From NCBI RefSeq assembly GCF_003334765.1, contig NZ_QOWT01000001.1: 64,000 bases of DNA; one strand, 5' to 3'. A program made the position numbers and the translations under genes. Every line of letters begins with the position of its first letter. Within the stretch, counting starts at the first letter, position 1. The notes under the pieces are model-generated. The model had not been told where the DNA came from and made no database searches. It was given only the letters and a program-made list of their open reading frames with translations. This DNA comes from Escherichia coli. GTDB taxonomy: Bacteria; Pseudomonadota; Gammaproteobacteria; Enterobacterales; Enterobacteriaceae. This document shows positions 11,509 to 44,305 of this stretch, piece after piece.

Positions 11509-14500
11509 ATGATTCCACAGATTTCCCAGGCACCCGGCGTCGTTCAACTGGTGCTTAATTTTTTGCAAGAGCTGGAGCAACAAGGTTTTACCGGCGATAC
11601 GGCGACAAGTTATGCCGATCGTCTGACAATGTCGACCGACAACAGTATTTACCAACTTCTCCCCGATGCGGTGGTATTTCCGCGTTCAACCGCAGATGTG
11701 GCGCTGATCGCCCGTCTTGCCGCGCAGGAACGCTATTCATCGCTGATCTTTACCCCCCGCGGCGGCGGCACCGGCACTAACGGTCAGGCGCTCAACCAGG
11801 GGATTATTGTTGATATGTCCCGCCATATGAACCGCATCATCGAAATTAACCCTGAAGAGGGCTGGGTGCGCGTTGAGGCCGGGGTGATAAAAGATCAACT
11901 CAATCAGTACCTGAAACCGTTCGGCTACTTTTTTGCGCCGGAACTTTCGACCAGCAACCGGGCAACGCTCGGTGGGATGATCAATACCGATGCATCCGGT
12001 CAGGGATCGCTGGTCTATGGCAAAACGTCAGATCACGTACTTGGCGTACGCGCGGTGTTGTTGGGGGGCGATATTCTCGATACGCAACCTTTACCCGTCG
12101 AATTGGCGGAAACGCTGGGTAAATCCAATACCACAATCGGGCGAATTTATAACACGGTTTATCAACGTTGCCGTCAGCAACGCCAGTTAATTATCGACAA
12201 CTTCCCCAAACTTAACCGCTTTCTTACCGGTTACGATCTGCGTCATGTCTTTAACGATGAGATGACCGAGTTCGACCTGACGCGCATTCTGACGGGTTCA
12301 GAAGGGACGCTGGCCTTTATTACCGAAGCGCGGCTGGATATTACACGCTTGCCTAAAGTGCGCCGTCTGGTGAACGTCAAATATGACTCTTTTGACTCTG
12401 CGCTGCGTAACGCGCCGTTTATGGTTGAGGCGCGGGCGCTTTCGGTAGAGACGGTGGACTCAAAAGTGCTGAATCTGGCGCGGGAAGATATTGTCTGGCA
12501 TTCCGTCAGCGAGTTGATTACCGATGTGCCTGACCAAGAGATGCTCGGGCTGAACATTGTGGAATTTGCTGGTGATGATGAGGCGCTGATTGATGAGCGG
12601 GTAAATGCACTCTGTGCGCGGTTGGATGAGCTGATCGCCAGTCATCAAGCAGGTGTCATCGGCTGGCAGGTGTGCCGTGAGCTGGCGGGGGTTGAACGTA
12701 TCTATGCAATGCGCAAAAAAGCCGTTGGTCTGCTTGGCAATGCCAAAGGTGCCGCTAAGCCAATTCCGTTTGCTGAGGATACCTGCGTACCGCCGGAACA
12801 CCTGGCGGATTATATTGCTGAATTTCGCGCGCTGCTCGACAGCCACGGCTTAAGCTACGGTATGTTCGGTCACGTCGACGCAGGTGTCTTGCACGTCCGT
12901 CCAGCGCTGGATATGTGCGATCCTCAACAAGAGATTTTGATGAAGCAAATCTCTGATGACGTGGTGGCGCTGACTGCGAAATACGGTGGTTTGTTGTGGG
13001 GCGAGCACGGCAAAGGTTTTCGCGCTGAATACAGCCCGGCGTTTTTCGGTGAGGAACTTTTTGCAGAACTGCGCAAAGTGAAAGCGGCATTTGACCCGCA
13101 TAACCGACTCAACCCAGGGAAGATTTGCCCGCCAGAAGGTCTCGATGCGCCGATGATGAAAGTGGACGCGGTGAAGCGCGGTACATTCGATCGGCAGATC
13201 CCCATTGCGGTACGCCAGCAGTGGCGCGGTGCGATGGAGTGTAACGGCAACGGTTTATGCTTCAACTTTGATGCCCGTAGTCCGATGTGTCCGTCGATGA
13301 AGATCACCCAGAACCGGATTCATTCACCGAAAGGGCGCGCAACGCTGGTGCGTGAATGGCTGCGTTTGTTGGCGGATCGCGGCGTTGATCCACTCAAACT
13401 GGAACAAGAACTGCCTGAATCCGGCGTCAGTTTGCGGACGTTAATTGCCCGCACGCGCAATAGCTGGCATGCGAATAAAGGCGAATATGACTTCTCACAC
13501 GAAGTCAAAGAGGCGATGTCGGGCTGTCTGGCCTGTAAAGCGTGTTCGACCCAGTGCCCCATCAAAATTGATGTGCCGGAGTTTCGCTCTCGTTTTCTGC
13601 AGCTCTATCACACCCGTTATTTACGCCCGCTGCGCGACCACCTCGTCGCTACGGTCGAGAGCTACGCGCCGCTGATGGCACGCGCGCCGAAAACCTTTAA
13701 CTTCTTCATTAACCAGCCGCTGGTGCGCAAACTCTCGGAAAAACATATCGGCATGGTTGATTTGCCGCTGCTGTCGGTCCCCTCGCTACAACAACAAATG
13801 GTGGGGCATCGCTCGGCAAACATGACGCTGGAACAGCTTGAATCTCTCAATGCAGAGCAGAAAGCGCGCACAGTGTTGGTGGTGCAGGACCCCTTTACCA
13901 GCTATTACGATGCGCAAGTGGTGGCGGATTTTGTCCGTCTGGTCGAAAAATTAGGTTTCCAGCCTGTGTTACTGCCATTTTCGCCAAATGGCAAAGCCCA
14001 GCATATTAAAGGTTTTCTTAATCGTTTTGCGAAGACGGCGAAAAAGACGGCGGATTTCCTCAACCGTATGGCGAAGCTGGGTATGCCAATGGTGGGCGTC
14101 GATCCGGCGCTGGTACTTTGTTATCGCGATGAATATAAACTGGCGCTGGGCGAGGAGCGTGGCGAGTTTAACGTCTTACTGGCGAATGAATGGCTGGCAA
14201 GCGCACTTGAGTCACAGCCAGTGGCTACAGTCAGCGGTGAATCATGGTATTTCTTTGGTCACTGTACCGAAGTTACCGCCTTGCCGGGTGCGCCAGCACA
14301 ATGGGCCGCGATATTTGCCCATTTTGGCGCGAAACTGGAAAATGTCAGCGTGGGTTGCTGCGGCATGGCAGGGACTTACGGACATGAAGCGAAAAACCAT
14401 GAAAATTCGCTCGGGATCTATGAGTTATCCTGGCATCAGGCTATGCAGCGACTGCCGCGTAACCGCTGTCTGGCGACCGGATATTCCTGCCGTAGCCAGG

Positions 14501-15807: not shown

Positions 15808-16176
15808 ATGGACATGCATTCAGGAACCTTTAACCCACAAGATTTCGCCTGGCAAGGCTTAACGCTGACACCCGCAGCGGCGATACACATCCGTGAGCTG
15901 GTGGCAAAGCAGCCGGGTATGGTCGGCGTGCGCTTAGGCGTGAAGCAAACGGGCTGCGCGGGCTTTGGCTATGTGCTCGACAGTGTTAGCGAGCCGGACA
16001 AAGACGATCTGCTGTTTGAACACGACGGCGCGAAGCTGTTTGTCCCGCTGCAAGCGATGCCGTTTATTGATGGCACGGAAGTCGATTTCGTTCGTGAAGG
16101 ACTTAATCAGATATTCAAATTTCACAACCCTAAAGCCCAGAATGAATGTGGCTGTGGCGAAAGCTTTGGGGTATAG
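15808..16176 (+). CDS. sufA: Fe-S cluster carrier, A-type
   Basis: 122-aa ORF ending in the C-terminal CGCGESF motif. Confidence 0.92.
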
Positions 16177-16184
16177 GCGGTACT

Positions 16185-17672
16185 ATGTCTCGTAATACTG
16201 AAGCAACTGACGATGTCAAAACCTGGACCGGCGGCCCGCTGAATTATAAAGAAGGATTCTTCACCCAGTTAGCCACCGATGAGCTGGCAAAGGGGATAAA
16301 CGAAGAGGTGGTGCGCGCAATTTCGGCGAAGCGTAATGAGCCGGAGTGGATGCTGGAGTTTCGTCTAAACGCCTATCGCGCATGGCTGGAGATGGAAGAA
16401 CCGCACTGGTTGAAAGCGCACTACGACAAGCTGAATTATCAGGATTACAGCTACTACTCAGCACCATCGTGCGGTAATTGTGACGACACTTGCGCGTCTG
16501 AACCTGGCGCGGTGCAGCAAACTGGCGCGAACGCCTTTTTAAGTAAAGAGGTGGAGGCGGCGTTTGAGCAGTTGGGCGTTCCCGTGCGGGAAGGCAAAGA
16601 GGTGGCGGTGGATGCCATTTTCGACTCAGTTTCGGTTGCCACTACTTATCGCGAAAAACTGGCGGAGCAGGGAATTATTTTCTGTTCCTTTGGTGAGGCG
16701 ATCCACGATCACCCGGAACTGGTGCGTAAATATCTCGGCACCGTGGTGCCGGGGAATGACAACTTCTTTGCCGCGCTTAATGCGGCGGTAGCCTCTGACG
16801 GTACGTTTATTTATGTGCCTAAAGGCGTGCGCTGCCCGATGGAACTTTCCACCTATTTTCGCATTAACGCAGAAAAAACCGGGCAGTTTGAGCGCACCAT
16901 TCTGGTGGCCGACGAAGACAGCTACGTCAGCTACATTGAAGGCTGTTCCGCTCCGGTGCGTGACAGCTATCAGTTACACGCGGCAGTGGTGGAAGTCATC
17001 ATCCATAAAAACGCCGAGGTGAAATATTCCACGGTACAAAACTGGTTTCCTGGCGATAACAACACCGGCGGTATTCTCAACTTCGTCACCAAGCGTGCTT
17101 TGTGCGAAGGCGAAAACAGCAAAATGTCATGGACGCAATCAGAAACCGGGTCAGCGATTACGTGGAAATATCCCAGCTGCATTTTGCGCGGCGATAACTC
17201 CATTGGTGAGTTTTACTCAGTGGCGCTGACCAGCGGTCATCAGCAAGCGGATACCGGCACCAAGATGATCCACATCGGTAAAAACACCAAATCGACCATT
17301 ATCTCGAAAGGGATCTCTGCCGGACATAGTCAGAACAGTTATCGCGGCTTAGTGAAAATCATGCCGACGGCAACCAATGCGCGCAATTTCACTCAGTGCG
17401 ACTCAATGCTGATTGGCGCTAATTGTGGGGCGCATACCTTCCCGTATGTTGAGTGTCGTAACAATAGTGCGCAACTGGAACACGAGGCAACGACATCACG
17501 TATTGGTGAAGATCAACTGTTTTACTGCCTGCAACGCGGGATCAGCGAAGAAGACGCCATCTCGATGATTGTTAACGGTTTCTGCAAAGACGTGTTCTCG
17601 GAGCTGCCGTTGGAATTTGCCGTTGAAGCACAAAAACTCCTCGCCATCAGTCTTGAACACAGCGTCGGATAA
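16185..17672 (+). CDS. sufB: Fe-S cluster assembly scaffold SufB
   Basis: ATG at 16185 gives [29 protein letters not shown]… (495 aa); the track ORF starts 13 codons upstream. Confidence 0.92.
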
Positions 17673-17681
17673 GGAATAAAC

Positions 17682-18428
17682 ATGTTAAGTATTAAAGATT
17701 TACACGTCAGCGTGGAAGATAAAGCTATCCTGCGCGGATTAAGCCTCGACGTTCATCCCGGCGAAGTTCACGCCATTATGGGGCCAAACGGTTCGGGCAA
17801 AAGTACCTTATCGGCAACGCTTGCCGGGCGAGAAGATTATGAAGTGACGGGCGGCACGGTTGAGTTCAAAGGCAAAGATTTGCTTGCGCTGTCGCCGGAA
17901 GATCGCGCGGGCGAAGGCATCTTTATGGCCTTCCAGTATCCGGTGGAGATTCCAGGTGTCAGTAACCAGTTTTTCCTGCAAACGGCACTTAATGCGGTGC
18001 GCAGCTATCGCGGCCAGGAAACGCTCGACCGCTTTGATTTTCAGGATTTGATGGAAGAGAAAATCGCTCTCCTGAAGATGCCGGAAGATTTATTAACCCG
18101 TTCGGTAAACGTTGGTTTTTCCGGCGGCGAGAAAAAGCGCAACGATATTTTGCAAATGGCGGTGCTGGAACCGGAGTTATGCATTCTTGATGAGTCGGAC
18201 TCCGGGCTGGATATTGACGCATTAAAAGTGGTCGCCGATGGCGTGAACTCGCTGCGTGATGGCAAGCGCTCATTCATCATTGTTACGCACTACCAACGCA
18301 TTCTCGACTACATCAAGCCTGATTACGTTCATGTGCTATATCAGGGACGAATTGTGAAATCCGGCGATTTCACGTTGGTCAAACAACTGGAGGAGCAGGG
18401 TTATGGCTGGCTTACCGAACAGCAGTAA
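17682..18428 (+). CDS. sufC: Fe-S cluster assembly ATPase SufC
   Basis: 248-aa ORF with Walker A (GPNGSGKST) and ABC signature (FSGGEKKR). Confidence 0.93.
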   Translation: MLSIKDLHVSVEDKAILRGLSLDVHPGEVHAIMGPNGSGKSTLSATLAGREDYEVTGGTVEFKGKDLLALSPEDRAGEGIFMAFQYPVEIPGVSNQFFLQTALNAVRSYRGQETLDRFDFQDLMEEKIALLKMPEDLLTRSVNVGFSGGEKKRNDILQMAVLEPELCILDESDSGLDIDALKVVADGVNSLRDGKRSFIIVTHYQRILDYIKPDYVHVLYQGRIVKSGDFTLVKQLEEQGYGWLTEQQ

Positions 18429-19674
18429 CGCGCTGCAACAGTGGCATCACTTGTTTGAAGCTGAAGGGACAAAACGCTCCCCGCAAGCACAGCAGCATTT
18501 ACAACAATTGCTGCGTACCGGACTGCCGACACGTAAACATGAAAACTGGAAATATACGCCGCTGGAAGGGCTGATCAATAGCCAGTTTGTCAGCATTGCG
18601 GGAGAGATATCCCCACAGCAGCGTGATGCCTTAGCGTTAACGTTAGACTCCGTGCGGCTGGTGTTTGTCGATGGGCGTTACGTGCCCGCACTGAGCGATG
18701 CAACTGAAGGCAGCGGATATGAAGTGAGCATTAACGACGACCGTCAGGGTTTACCCGACGCTATTCAGGCGGAAGTGTTTCTGCATTTGACGGAAAGCCT
18801 GGCACAAAGCGTGACGCATATCGCCGTGAAGCGCGGTCAACGGCCGGCAAAGCCATTGCTGTTAATGCATATCACCCAGGGCGTGGCAGGTGAAGAGGTG
18901 AACACTGCCCATTACCGACATCATCTGGATCTGGCGGAAGGTGCCGAAGCAACGGTGATCGAACATTTTGTCAGCCTGAATGATGCTCGTCATTTTACCG
19001 GGGCACGGTTCACTATCAACGTCGCAGCGAATGCCCACTTGCAGCATATCAAGCTGGCGTTTGAAAACCCGCTCAGTCACCACTTTGCTCATAACGATTT
19101 GTTGCTGGCTGAGGATGCCACCGCATTTAGCCACAGTTTCCTGCTGGGTGGCGCAGTGTTACGACACAACACCAGTACGCAACTCAATGGCGAAAACAGC
19201 ACGCTGCGGATCAATAGCCTGGCGATGCCGGTGAAAAACGAGGTGTGTGATACCCGTACCTGGCTGGAACACAATAAAGGTTTTTGTAACAGCCGACAGT
19301 TGCACAAAACTATCGTCAGCGACAAAGGCCGCGCGGTATTTAACGGTTTGATCAACGTCGCGCAGCACGCCATCAAAACGGATGGTCAGATGACCAACAA
19401 CAATCTGCTGATGGGCAAACTGGCGGAAGTGGATACGAAACCGCAGCTGGAAATCTATGCAGATGATGTGAAATGCAGCCACGGCGCGACGGTGGGGCGT
19501 ATTGATGATGAACAGATATTCTATCTGCGCTCGCGCGGGATCAATCAGCAGGATGCCCAGCAGATGATCATTTACGCCTTCGCTGCCGAACTGACGGAAG
19601 CACTGCGTGATGAGGGGCTTAAACAGCAGGTGCTGGCCCGAATCGGTCAACGGCTGCCAGGAGGTGCAAGATGA
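18403..19674 (+). CDS. sufD: Fe-S cluster assembly protein SufD
   Basis: 423-aa ORF overlapping the sufC 3' end by 26 nt. Confidence 0.9.
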
Positions 19675-20891
19675 TTTTTTCCGTCGACAAAGTGCGGGCC
19701 GACTTTCCGGTGCTTTCGCGTGAGGTAAACGGTTTGCCGCTGGCTTATCTCGACAGCGCCGCCAGTGCGCAGAAACCGAGCCAGGTGATTGACGCCGAGG
19801 CCGAGTTTTATCGTCATGGCTACGCGGCGGTGCATCGTGGTATTCATACCTTAAGCGCCCAGGCGACCGAGAAAATGGAGAACGTGCGCAAGCGGGCATC
19901 GCTGTTTATTAATGCCCGTTCGGCGGAAGAGCTGGTGTTCGTCCGCGGCACGACGGAAGGGATCAATCTGGTCGCCAATAGCTGGGGCAACAGCAACGTG
20001 CGGGCGGGCGATAACATCATCATCAGTCAGATGGAGCACCACGCTAACATTGTTCCCTGGCAGATGCTTTGCGCACGCGTTGGCGCAGAGCTGCGTGTGA
20101 TCCCGCTCAATCCCGATGGTACGTTGCAACTGGAGACGCTGCCTACGCTGTTTGATGAGAAAACTCGCCTGCTGGCAATTACTCATGTCTCCAACGTGCT
20201 TGGCACAGAAAATCCACTGGCGGAAATGATCACGCTTGCGCACCAGCATGGCGCAAAAGTGCTGGTGGATGGCGCTCAGGCGGTGATGCATCATCCGGTG
20301 GATGTTCAGGCGCTGGATTGCGACTTTTACGTGTTCTCCGGGCATAAACTGTATGGCCCCACCGGAATTGGCATTCTTTATGTGAAAGAAGCCTTGTTGC
20401 AGGAGATGCCGCCGTGGGAAGGGGGCGGTTCTATGATCGCCACCGTCAGCCTGAGTGAAGGCACTACCTGGACCAAAGCACCATGGCGGTTTGAAGCCGG
20501 TACACCCAATACCGGGGGCATCATTGGTCTTGGCGCGGCGCTGGAGTATGTTTCGGCGCTGGGGCTTAATAACATAGCCGAGTATGAACAGAATCTGATG
20601 CATTATGCGCTATCACAGCTGGAATCTGTACCGGATCTCACTCTCTATGGCCCACAAAACAGGCTTGGCGTTATTGCTTTTAATCTCGGTAAACACCACG
20701 CCTATGATGTTGGCAGTTTTCTCGATAATTACGGCATTGCTGTGCGTACCGGACATCACTGCGCAATGCCATTGATGGCCTATTACAACGTCCCTGCGAT
20801 GTGTCGGGCGTCGCTGGCCATGTATAACACCCATGAAGAAGTGGATCGTCTGGTGACCGGCCTGCAACGTATTCACCGTTTGCTGGGATAA
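19671..20891 (+). CDS. sufS: Cysteine desulfurase SufS (PLP-dependent)
   Basis: 406-aa ORF with the PLP-lysine motif [12 protein letters not shown] and active-site Cys context (RTGHHCA); 4-nt overlap with the sufD stop. Confidence 0.93.
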
Positions 20892-20903: not shown

Positions 20904-21329
20904 ATGGCTTTATTGCCGGATAAAGAAAAGTTGCTGCGTAATTTTTTACGCTGCGCCAACTGGGAAGAGAAATATCTCTACATTATTGAGCTGGGCCAGC
21001 GTCTGCCAGAATTACGCGACGAAGACAGAAGTCCACAAAATAGCATTCAGGACTGTCAGAGTCAGGTGTGGATTGTCATGCGCCAGAATGCCCAGGGAAT
21101 TATTGAATTACAGGGCGACAGCGATGCGGCGATTGTGAAAGGGCTTATTGCGGTCGTCTTTATTCTCTACGATCAGATGACGCCGCAGGATATTGTCAAT
21201 TTCGATGTGCGTCCGTGGTTTGAAAAAATGGCGCTCACCCAACATCTCACCCCATCTCGTTCACAAGGTCTGGAAGCGATGATTCGCGCAATTCGCGCAA
21301 TTCGCGCCAAAGCCGCTGCACTTAGCTAA
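20904..21329 (+). CDS. sufE: Sulfur acceptor protein SufE
   Basis: 141-aa ORF ([32 protein letters not shown]…). The C-terminus carries three IRA units where I recall two (138 aa) in K-12. Confidence 0.9.
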
Positions 21330-44143: not shown

Positions 44144-44305
44144 CTTGCCGGATGCGGTGTTAACGACTCATCCGCGTTGACATGAAAAGACGCGTTAGGC
44201 GTCGTATCATGCAGCGCTTGTCGGATGCGGCGAGTGCCTTATCCGACCTACATCGATGATCCGCGTAGGCCTGATAAGCGTAGCGCTTCAGGCAATGCTG
44301 CATTT
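44144..44305. repeat. REP/BIME cluster (repetitive extragenic palindromes)
   Basis: Several REP units between convergent ydhP and sodB, e.g. GCCGGATGCGGTG…, GTCGGATGCGGCGAGTGCCTTATCCGACCTAC, GCCTGATAAGCGTAGCGCTTCAGGC. Confidence 0.8.

Follow-up and report, generated by a model that had tools for sequence, protein, structure and literature searches.

A rare third Ile-Arg-Ala unit in the C-terminal helix of Escherichia coli SufE, very probably gained by slipped-strand misalignment

Slipped-strand mispairing at direct repeats is a classical mutation mechanism, and misalignment mutagenesis at short tandem direct repeats is reportedly independent of RecA. The sufE gene described here resembles such sites, as units are gained and lost in register and in whole unit lengths, within a pre-existing repeat, in both directions and on independent backgrounds. 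It differs from typical slippage sites in that its starting array is minimal, with two units and 17 nt of identity, so that events are rare and become visible only through very many genomes. There is also a likeness to the phase-variable (contingency) simple-sequence-repeat loci of pathogens, in which the copy number of a tandem repeat in a coding sequence varies between strains. In contrast to those loci, however, sufE is a housekeeping stress-response gene and not a surface or restriction-modification gene, its repeat unit of 9 nt is a multiple of three and causes no ON/OFF frameshift, only one to three copies occur, and all 5,424 complete genomes that carry the gene have two units. With its frame-preserving unit, its narrow copy range and this invariance, the site does not behave as a contingency locus.

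The closest described protein is SufE of E. coli K-12 (P76194; PDB 1MZG and 8VBS), the sulfur-acceptor partner of SufS, a cysteine desulfurase. The gene in our window, which is the whole stretch of 64,000 nucleotides that was analysed, is found in the same gene context, and its DNA is identical to that of K-12 except for one SNP and a 9-bp unit. Its product differs from K-12 SufE in having 141 instead of 138 aa, with an extra Ile-Arg-Ala in the C-terminal helix, and in possessing an aspartate in place of the near-invariant Gly50. Two further public proteins, P0149 (Gly50, 141 aa; e.g. EGO4751719.1) and P0150 (135 aa; e.g. HBH9722632.1), are plainly annotated as SufE and have the same repeat with three units or one. 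They occur on haplotypes other than that of the window, up to 410 SNPs per 20 kb away, and contain Gly50 instead of Asp50.

The repeat array, its gene and its operon

The array is located in sufE, which is the last gene of an intact sufABCDSE operon. The features of this region are:

15808..20891, + strand: sufA-sufB-sufC-sufD-sufS, upstream of sufE, intact and protein-identical to K-12
20904..21329, + strand: the coding region of sufE, with 141 codons and a stop against 138 codons in K-12, from the ORF list, the RefSeq annotation of the matching K-12 and H3 gene, PF02657, and the PDB matches 1MZG, 8VBS and 11MP
21051..21053, + strand: codon 50, GAC (Asp) for GGC (Gly), with the SNP at 21052, a marker of the lineage that gave rise to the window's three-unit allele
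21054..21056, + strand: codon 51, TGT, the persulfide-accepting Cys51, intact in the translation
21282..21308, + strand: three tandem 9-bp units ATTCGCGCA / ATTCGCGCA / ATTCGCGCC, encoding Ile-Arg-Ala three times (residues 127-135)
21282..21290, + strand: the extra unit relative to K-12, visible as a gap of 9 nt when K-12 or strain H3 is aligned; it could be placed anywhere within 21282-21299, because every 9-nt frame of the 17-nt repeat yields an identical product

Positions 21279-21311 read, in frame, ATG (21279-21281), ATTCGCGCA (21282-21290), ATTCGCGCA (21291-21299), ATTCGCGCC (21300-21308) and AAA, and the sequence downstream of the array is AAA GCC GCT GCA CTT AGC TAA. The units are perfect, with the consensus ATTCGCGC(A/C). 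Tandem Repeats Finder reports the array at 21282-21307 with period 9, 2.9 copies and 100% matches, and it is the sole perfect short-period array in the 64-kb window. An earlier note on this DNA had claimed three units at the 3' end of sufE and a product of 141 aa, which the sequence, the open reading frame and the repeat finding confirm. Its statement that K-12 SufE has 138 aa and two units agrees with a direct alignment, in which the window and the MG1655 gene (417 nt, 138 aa, units ATTCGCGCA ATTCGCGCC) are separated by a clean 9-nt gap and one SNP.

In the array, 17 consecutive bases equal the bases 9 positions upstream. By our own arithmetic, the chance for this is ~4^-17 per position, and the three-unit array is therefore not a product of chance. 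The ancestral two-unit repeat is an 8-mer recurring at a spacing of 9, and chance yields about one such case per 64 kb. In ordinary E. coli, this two-unit repeat constitutes a 17-nt perfect direct repeat, ATTCGCGC-A-ATTCGCGC. The indel comprises exactly one unit, in register, inside the ATTCGCGCA/ATTCGCGCC array that K-12 already possesses, and the third unit is a duplication within this pre-existing two-unit repeat.

The assignment of the gene is supported by several lines of evidence. The PF02657 SufE domain is precomputed for the exact protein of the window, and phmmer matches it over the full length to 1MZG and 11MP (E about 1e-86), with 8VBS also being matched. Cys51, the persulfide-accepting residue, and Arg119, which is universally conserved in SufE (PMC11408855), are both present in the translation. 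Judged from its sequence, the gene encodes a member of the SufE family, for which persulfide acceptance and stimulation of SufS are predicted. A glycine precedes the catalytic cysteine (G-C-x-S motif) in 123 of 125 diverse SufE-family representatives, and an aspartate is found there in none. The window SufE departs from this motif with Asp50 next to Cys51; this glycine is a case of near-invariant conservation and not a formal definition of the family, and Asp50 flags an atypical allele without excluding SufE membership.

The gene order in the window, sufA-sufB-sufC-sufD-sufS-sufE-ldtE-lpp, is that of K-12. A decay of the whole operon was ruled out, as SufA to SufS are protein-identical to K-12. 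Compared with MG1655, the whole 64-kb window shows 13 SNPs, the 9-bp sufE insertion and one 73-bp intergenic element. With this K-12-like character, an origin from Shigella was ruled out. The 9 bp in sufE are the only indel relative to K-12 within the two aligned blocks, and the alignment also breaks at about 44,157-44,217. The 73-bp element (44158-44230, ydhP-sodB intergenic) is REP-like and palindromic, is absent from MG1655 and is bounded by CTTGCCGGATGCGG / CTTGTCGGATGCGG; it is apparently an ordinary case of REP/BIME copy-number variation. A tandem duplicate of 81 nt at 33611-33769 (92% identity) corresponds to two adjacent tRNA-Val genes that are annotated in K-12, and is a normal feature. 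Besides SufE, five amino-acid differences to K-12 were found among 19 genes checked, namely YdiJ R938H, YdhW V75A, YdhQ S324G, PunC A134T and AnmK Q71R, with SNP positions 14321, 28711, 35045, 39893 and 60885, and none of these 19 window genes is disrupted relative to K-12.

Rarity and reality of the three-unit allele

Copy number in public genomes was determined with probes designed such that no 28-mer seeds on the wrong allele. A 39-nt three-unit probe found none of the 5,426 complete E. coli genomes, and a 42-nt one-unit probe likewise found no complete genome, whereas a two-unit control probe of equal length matched 5,406 of the 5,426. In a sensitive blastn search with a 72-nt query, all 5,424 sufE-bearing complete genomes fell into the 80-90% band, which stands for 63 of 72 bases and thus for the gap of 9 nt. 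No genome reached 90% or fell below 80%, so that every sufE-bearing complete genome has exactly two units. Alleles with three units and with one unit are found in the much larger body of draft genomes and SRA data. In an index of public sequences, 80,930 blocks contain the K-12 allele, 21 the Gly50 three-unit allele and 14 the Gly50 one-unit allele; blocks are a rough proxy of abundance, and the look-ups were done by exact protein, so that these counts are lower bounds. On the Asp50 background, there are 1,750 blocks with two units and 13 with three. Exact look-ups of engineered sequences found no four-unit allele on Gly50, Asp50 or LT2 backgrounds, and exact look-ups on the Shigella sonnei background found neither a one- nor a three-unit allele. 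The alleles with other than two units are distributed over the two E. coli backgrounds as follows:

Gly50 (K-12 type) background: one unit present (P0150, 135 aa); three units present (P0149, 141 aa); four units absent
Asp50 background: one unit absent; three units present (the allele of the window); four units absent

The earlier note had spoken of a polymorphism; the three- and one-unit alleles at this site are very rare and do not amount to a common polymorphism. A literature search, judged by title, found no prior description of a repeat polymorphism in sufE.

Since all of these complete genomes, mostly finished with long reads, lack a third unit, and every carrier found is a draft or a Logan assembly, it could be argued that the strain truly has two units and that the third was made by the assembler or by polishing. 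We give hardly any credence to this explanation. The exact 141-aa protein of the window is found under four NCBI accessions (OWD41924.1, CAM3440849.1, HAH2836168.1 and HAI0793391.1), annotated as E. coli SufE, and on 13 contigs. Four loci were fetched (assembly GCA_002190275.1; Logan assemblies for the runs SRR10357268, SRR3951470 and SRR25039413), and they match the window over 7-20 kb with a single mismatch among them, 8 nt from a contig end. Independent runs thus share the allele, which argues against an assembly artefact, with the read-level support resting on independent assemblies. The allele is present in at least four independent samples and was obtained by two assembly routes, submitter assemblies and Logan. 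Logan assemblies use k=31, and the 27-nt array is shorter than typical assembly k-mers, so that no ambiguity arises in the graph. Also the mirror-image allele with one unit exists, and 0 of 5,424 is what is expected at a frequency near 1e-4. From these sequences, a one-off assembly artefact appears very unlikely. The window's allele is genuine but rare, public databases already contain it, and the type of event is well known.

Recurrence on other haplotypes and the origin of the third unit

Ten loci carrying P0149 and seven carrying P0150 were fetched and mapped to window coordinates, and all of them show clean unit-length changes at the DNA level. The three-unit alleles are found on the following haplotypes:

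The Asp50 type of the window: 0 SNPs vs the window
A K-12-like type (L013, L014): 3-7 SNPs vs the window
L007/L010/L015: 139-205 SNPs vs the window
L008/L009/L011/L012: 210-220 SNPs vs the window
L016: 50 SNPs vs the window

One-unit alleles occur on four or five further haplotypes and in two forms, ATTCGCGCC (...GCC) and ATTCGCGCA (...GCA). The latter was observed in L021 and L023, two ENA metagenome assemblies. The retention of ...GCA indicates either that the second unit was deleted there, or that the misaligned intermediate had an A/C mismatch whose resolution went in the opposite direction.

For L007 and L008 (three units) and for L017 (one unit), the nearest complete genomes have two units and agree with them over 5.5 kb except for the 9-bp indel, with mismatch counts of 1, 0 and 0, respectively, as inferred from bit scores. 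Since two-unit genomes agree, save for the 9 bp, with each of the three variant haplotypes tested, the events are recurrent and independent. The sequences point to probably about 10, and at least 8, independent gains and losses. Between the members of the group L008, L009, L011 and L012 there are 7-28 SNPs per 20 kb, suggesting that an allele with three units is able to last for a while.

As alternative to recurrent events, a single ancestral three-unit allele might have been spread by homologous recombination. E. coli does recombine, and the array sequence (GCA, GCA, GCC) is identical in all 14 three-unit loci fetched (L003-L016). However, slippage on one template must give identical arrays as well. 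SNPs that tell the haplotypes apart lie close to the repeat, on its downstream side from 28 nt onwards and on its upstream side from 124-172 nt, so that several separately imported tracts of less than ~200 bp would be required, and three-unit strains do not possess a common short haplotype flanking the repeat that is distinct from their own backgrounds. Each tested three-unit haplotype has its own two-unit relatives as described above, all four combinations of Gly/Asp50 with two or three units exist, and the contractions to one unit on further haplotypes need their own events in any case. We therefore consider a single origin most improbable.

Expansions as well as contractions on several unrelated haplotypes are the signature of slippage in both directions, which supports the replication slippage proposed in the earlier note. 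We infer that slipped-strand misalignment produced the third unit, and think it very probable that this unit is a genuine 9-bp in-frame tandem duplication generated in this way, recurrent at this site and tolerated but rare. The two adjacent Ile-Arg-Ala codon triplets would offer, with their 17-nt perfect direct repeat, a target on which the nascent strand can re-pair one unit out of register, and this pairing would lead to the gain or loss of one unit while the reading frame is kept. In the strain of the window, a single slippage event would have occurred in a rare lineage that already carried Gly50Asp, followed by clonal inheritance. Other E. coli lineages underwent independent expansion to three units or contraction to one, each variant being rare and none fixed. 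A hairpin-assisted variant of slippage was ruled out by DNA folding of the two- and three-unit segments on both strands, which gave z-scores of 0.04, 0.40 and -0.76 against shuffled sequences.

Another source of a 9-bp duplication could be a transposon. IS1, IS10/Tn10 and IS50/Tn5 make 9-bp target duplications, and the length of the extra unit would fit a target-site duplication that was left after insertion and loss of such an element. IS insertions are also known in the suf region of some strains (IS421, two genomes). Yet the duplication coincides with the period-9 repeat, which holds for only ~10 of the 417 possible positions in the gene. Moreover, when an element is excised precisely in E. 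coli, one of the duplicated copies normally goes with it, and both would not normally be left. One-unit alleles and recurrence at the same site are unexplained by such a footprint, there is no IS remnant, and no IS element flanked by the 9-mer at 21282-21299 was seen in close relatives among the 5,426 genomes. A transposon footprint is thus scarcely conceivable as the origin of the third unit.

The two insertions just mentioned were observed as annotated IS4-like IS421 transposase genes within the matched sufD-to-pykF stretch of NZ_CP074576.1 (CS18F) and NZ_CM143910.1 (E06). The transposase is absent from the window, and its occurrence shows that the region of the suf operon is occasionally struck by insertion sequences.

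Salmonella provides a contrast to E. coli. The same perfect 17-nt repeat, ATTCGCGCA ATTCGCGCT, is present in sufE in all seven Salmonella enterica loci examined (L026, L029-L034, about positions 679-696) and in LT2-type sufE, and in Citrobacter and Huaxiibacter the repeat is broken by a synonymous change. The LT2 SufE protein background is represented by 29,634 index blocks, on which exact look-ups found no variant with one, three or four units. The prediction that Salmonella shows the variants of E. coli was hence not borne out, neither on the P0106 nor on the LT2 protein background. Compared with the roughly 10 events in E. coli, about 3-4 would be expected on LT2 by rough scaling, and the probability of zero is ~0.03 if phylogenetic structure is ignored. 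It is possible that the hotspot is either weaker in Salmonella or more strongly selected against, with more clonal sampling or chance as alternatives.

The C-terminal helix, the Gly50Asp lineage and functional meaning

The description of the repeat site as a C-terminal tail has turned out to be misleading, as the repeat is part of a conserved α-helix that borders the SufS contact region. In 20 SufE sequences from ~8 enterobacterial genera, the motif IRAIR is invariant, and nearly all matches have 138 aa. Relative to K-12 residues 120-138, 103 of 124 diverse SufE homologs have no indel and only two have an insertion. Among 125 representatives, the spacing of Gly122, Leu123, Met126, Ile/Val127, Ile130 and Ala134 is conserved, and length varies only beyond these positions. 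The site of the repeat is therefore a conserved C-terminal helix, the internal length of which is almost invariant across the family.

In the SufS-SufE crystal structure, SufE makes its contacts with the Cys51 loop (residues 47-53) and with the Arg119 loop and its flanks (residues 112-128) (PMC11408855), and the region of the C-terminal helix borders this contact region (PMC11408855; PMC13228346). The insertion at residues 127-135 thus borders the partner-binding surface. AlphaFold predicts a helix at residues 117-140 for the 141-aa SufE of the window (mean pLDDT 75.8) and at 117-137 for K-12 SufE (mean pLDDT 67.2), the latter being a control run with the same shallow alignment, and both models being of moderate confidence. 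As a test for destabilisation, these models do not discriminate between the alleles, and they only show that the insertion is modelled as an extension of the helix. Helical-wheel calculations give a hydrophobic moment of 1.07 for two units, 1.04 for three, 0.85 for one and 0.80 for four, which suggests that amphipathicity would be retained with three units. In the same kind of calculation, three units lead to a rise of +4.5 Å and a rotation of the terminal Leu by 60 degrees. The product of the window would accordingly be predicted as a SufE with a C-terminal helix longer by one IRA unit, with ~4.5 Å of extra rise and the terminal KAAALS turned by ~60 degrees.

The second change in this SufE, Gly50Asp, defines a rare lineage. 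An Asp50-specific probe found 12 of the 5,426 complete genomes, all with two units. Over 24.9 kb, three Asp50 genomes with two units (BS74R-D, HSP425 and OZ547038) show no difference from the window other than the 9 bp, and by sequence, the window's three-unit allele goes back to one clonal event within this lineage. Position 50 belongs to the loop of Cys51, which is in contact with SufS and has to change into an extended conformation (PMC11408855, PMC13228346). Gly50Asp replaces a roughly 98%-conserved glycine in this loop, which has to open for persulfide transfer, and may be more consequential biochemically than the repeat.

The Cys51 loop is also affected in P0036, a public E. coli SufE of 133 aa on a 4.8-Mb NCBI contig. 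Five residues of the loop including Cys51 are missing from it (NSIQ-GCQSQ-VW to NSIQVW). P0036 is presumably null, and it appears to be a further case of a small deletion between short repeats of CAG.

The coexistence of both changes in one protein raises the question of an adaptive or compensatory role, in which a slippage product would have been kept because the longer helix adjusts the binding between SufE and SufS, and perhaps makes up for Gly50Asp in the loop of Cys51. Of the Suf proteins in the strain of the window, SufE alone is altered, and it carries two changes; the insertion is next to residues 112-128, which contact SufS, and Asp50 is part of the contacting loop 47-53 (PMC11408855). 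The share of three-unit alleles is also higher in the Asp50 lineage (13/1,750 blocks) than on Gly50 (21/80,930). However, the Asp50 three-unit carriers are one clone, so that this enrichment represents a single event, and most of the three-unit events occurred on Gly50 backgrounds. On the Asp50 background, the two-unit form greatly outnumbers the three-unit form, and the persistence of Asp50 hence needs no compensation. Furthermore, no variant is widespread, and the length of the helix is conserved across genera. We thus regard an adaptive or compensatory role as very unlikely. A more far-reaching proposal, that the number of IRA units serves as a tuning knob for SufS-SufE and that the extra unit was kept as it compensates or synergises with Gly50Asp, appears highly unlikely to us. 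If it were true, the strain would possess a functionally re-tuned sulfur-transfer step and not a neutral length variant.

Recurrence without spread, together with the strict conservation of length, fits a mutational hotspot whose products would be tolerated but mildly disfavoured in the long term, which is what we infer from these sequences. The case of sufE is one of routine slippage in a tandem repeat of minimal size. The site is an ordinary mutational hotspot, and the allele had been deposited unremarked. Even a two-unit, 17-nt repeat inside a conserved gene gives rise to recurrent homoplasic indels, visible only when at least 100,000 genomes are considered, and these indels could mislead allele typing or pass for assembly errors. 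Recurrence without spread and the strict length of 138 aa across genera also suggest purifying selection on the length of the helix. The C-terminal helix and the Cys51 loop have been implicated in partner binding and loop opening by recent SufS-SufE and SufBC2D-SufE structures, and the natural SufE variants of 135, 138 and 141 aa, together with the natural Gly50Asp, are probes of these two elements.
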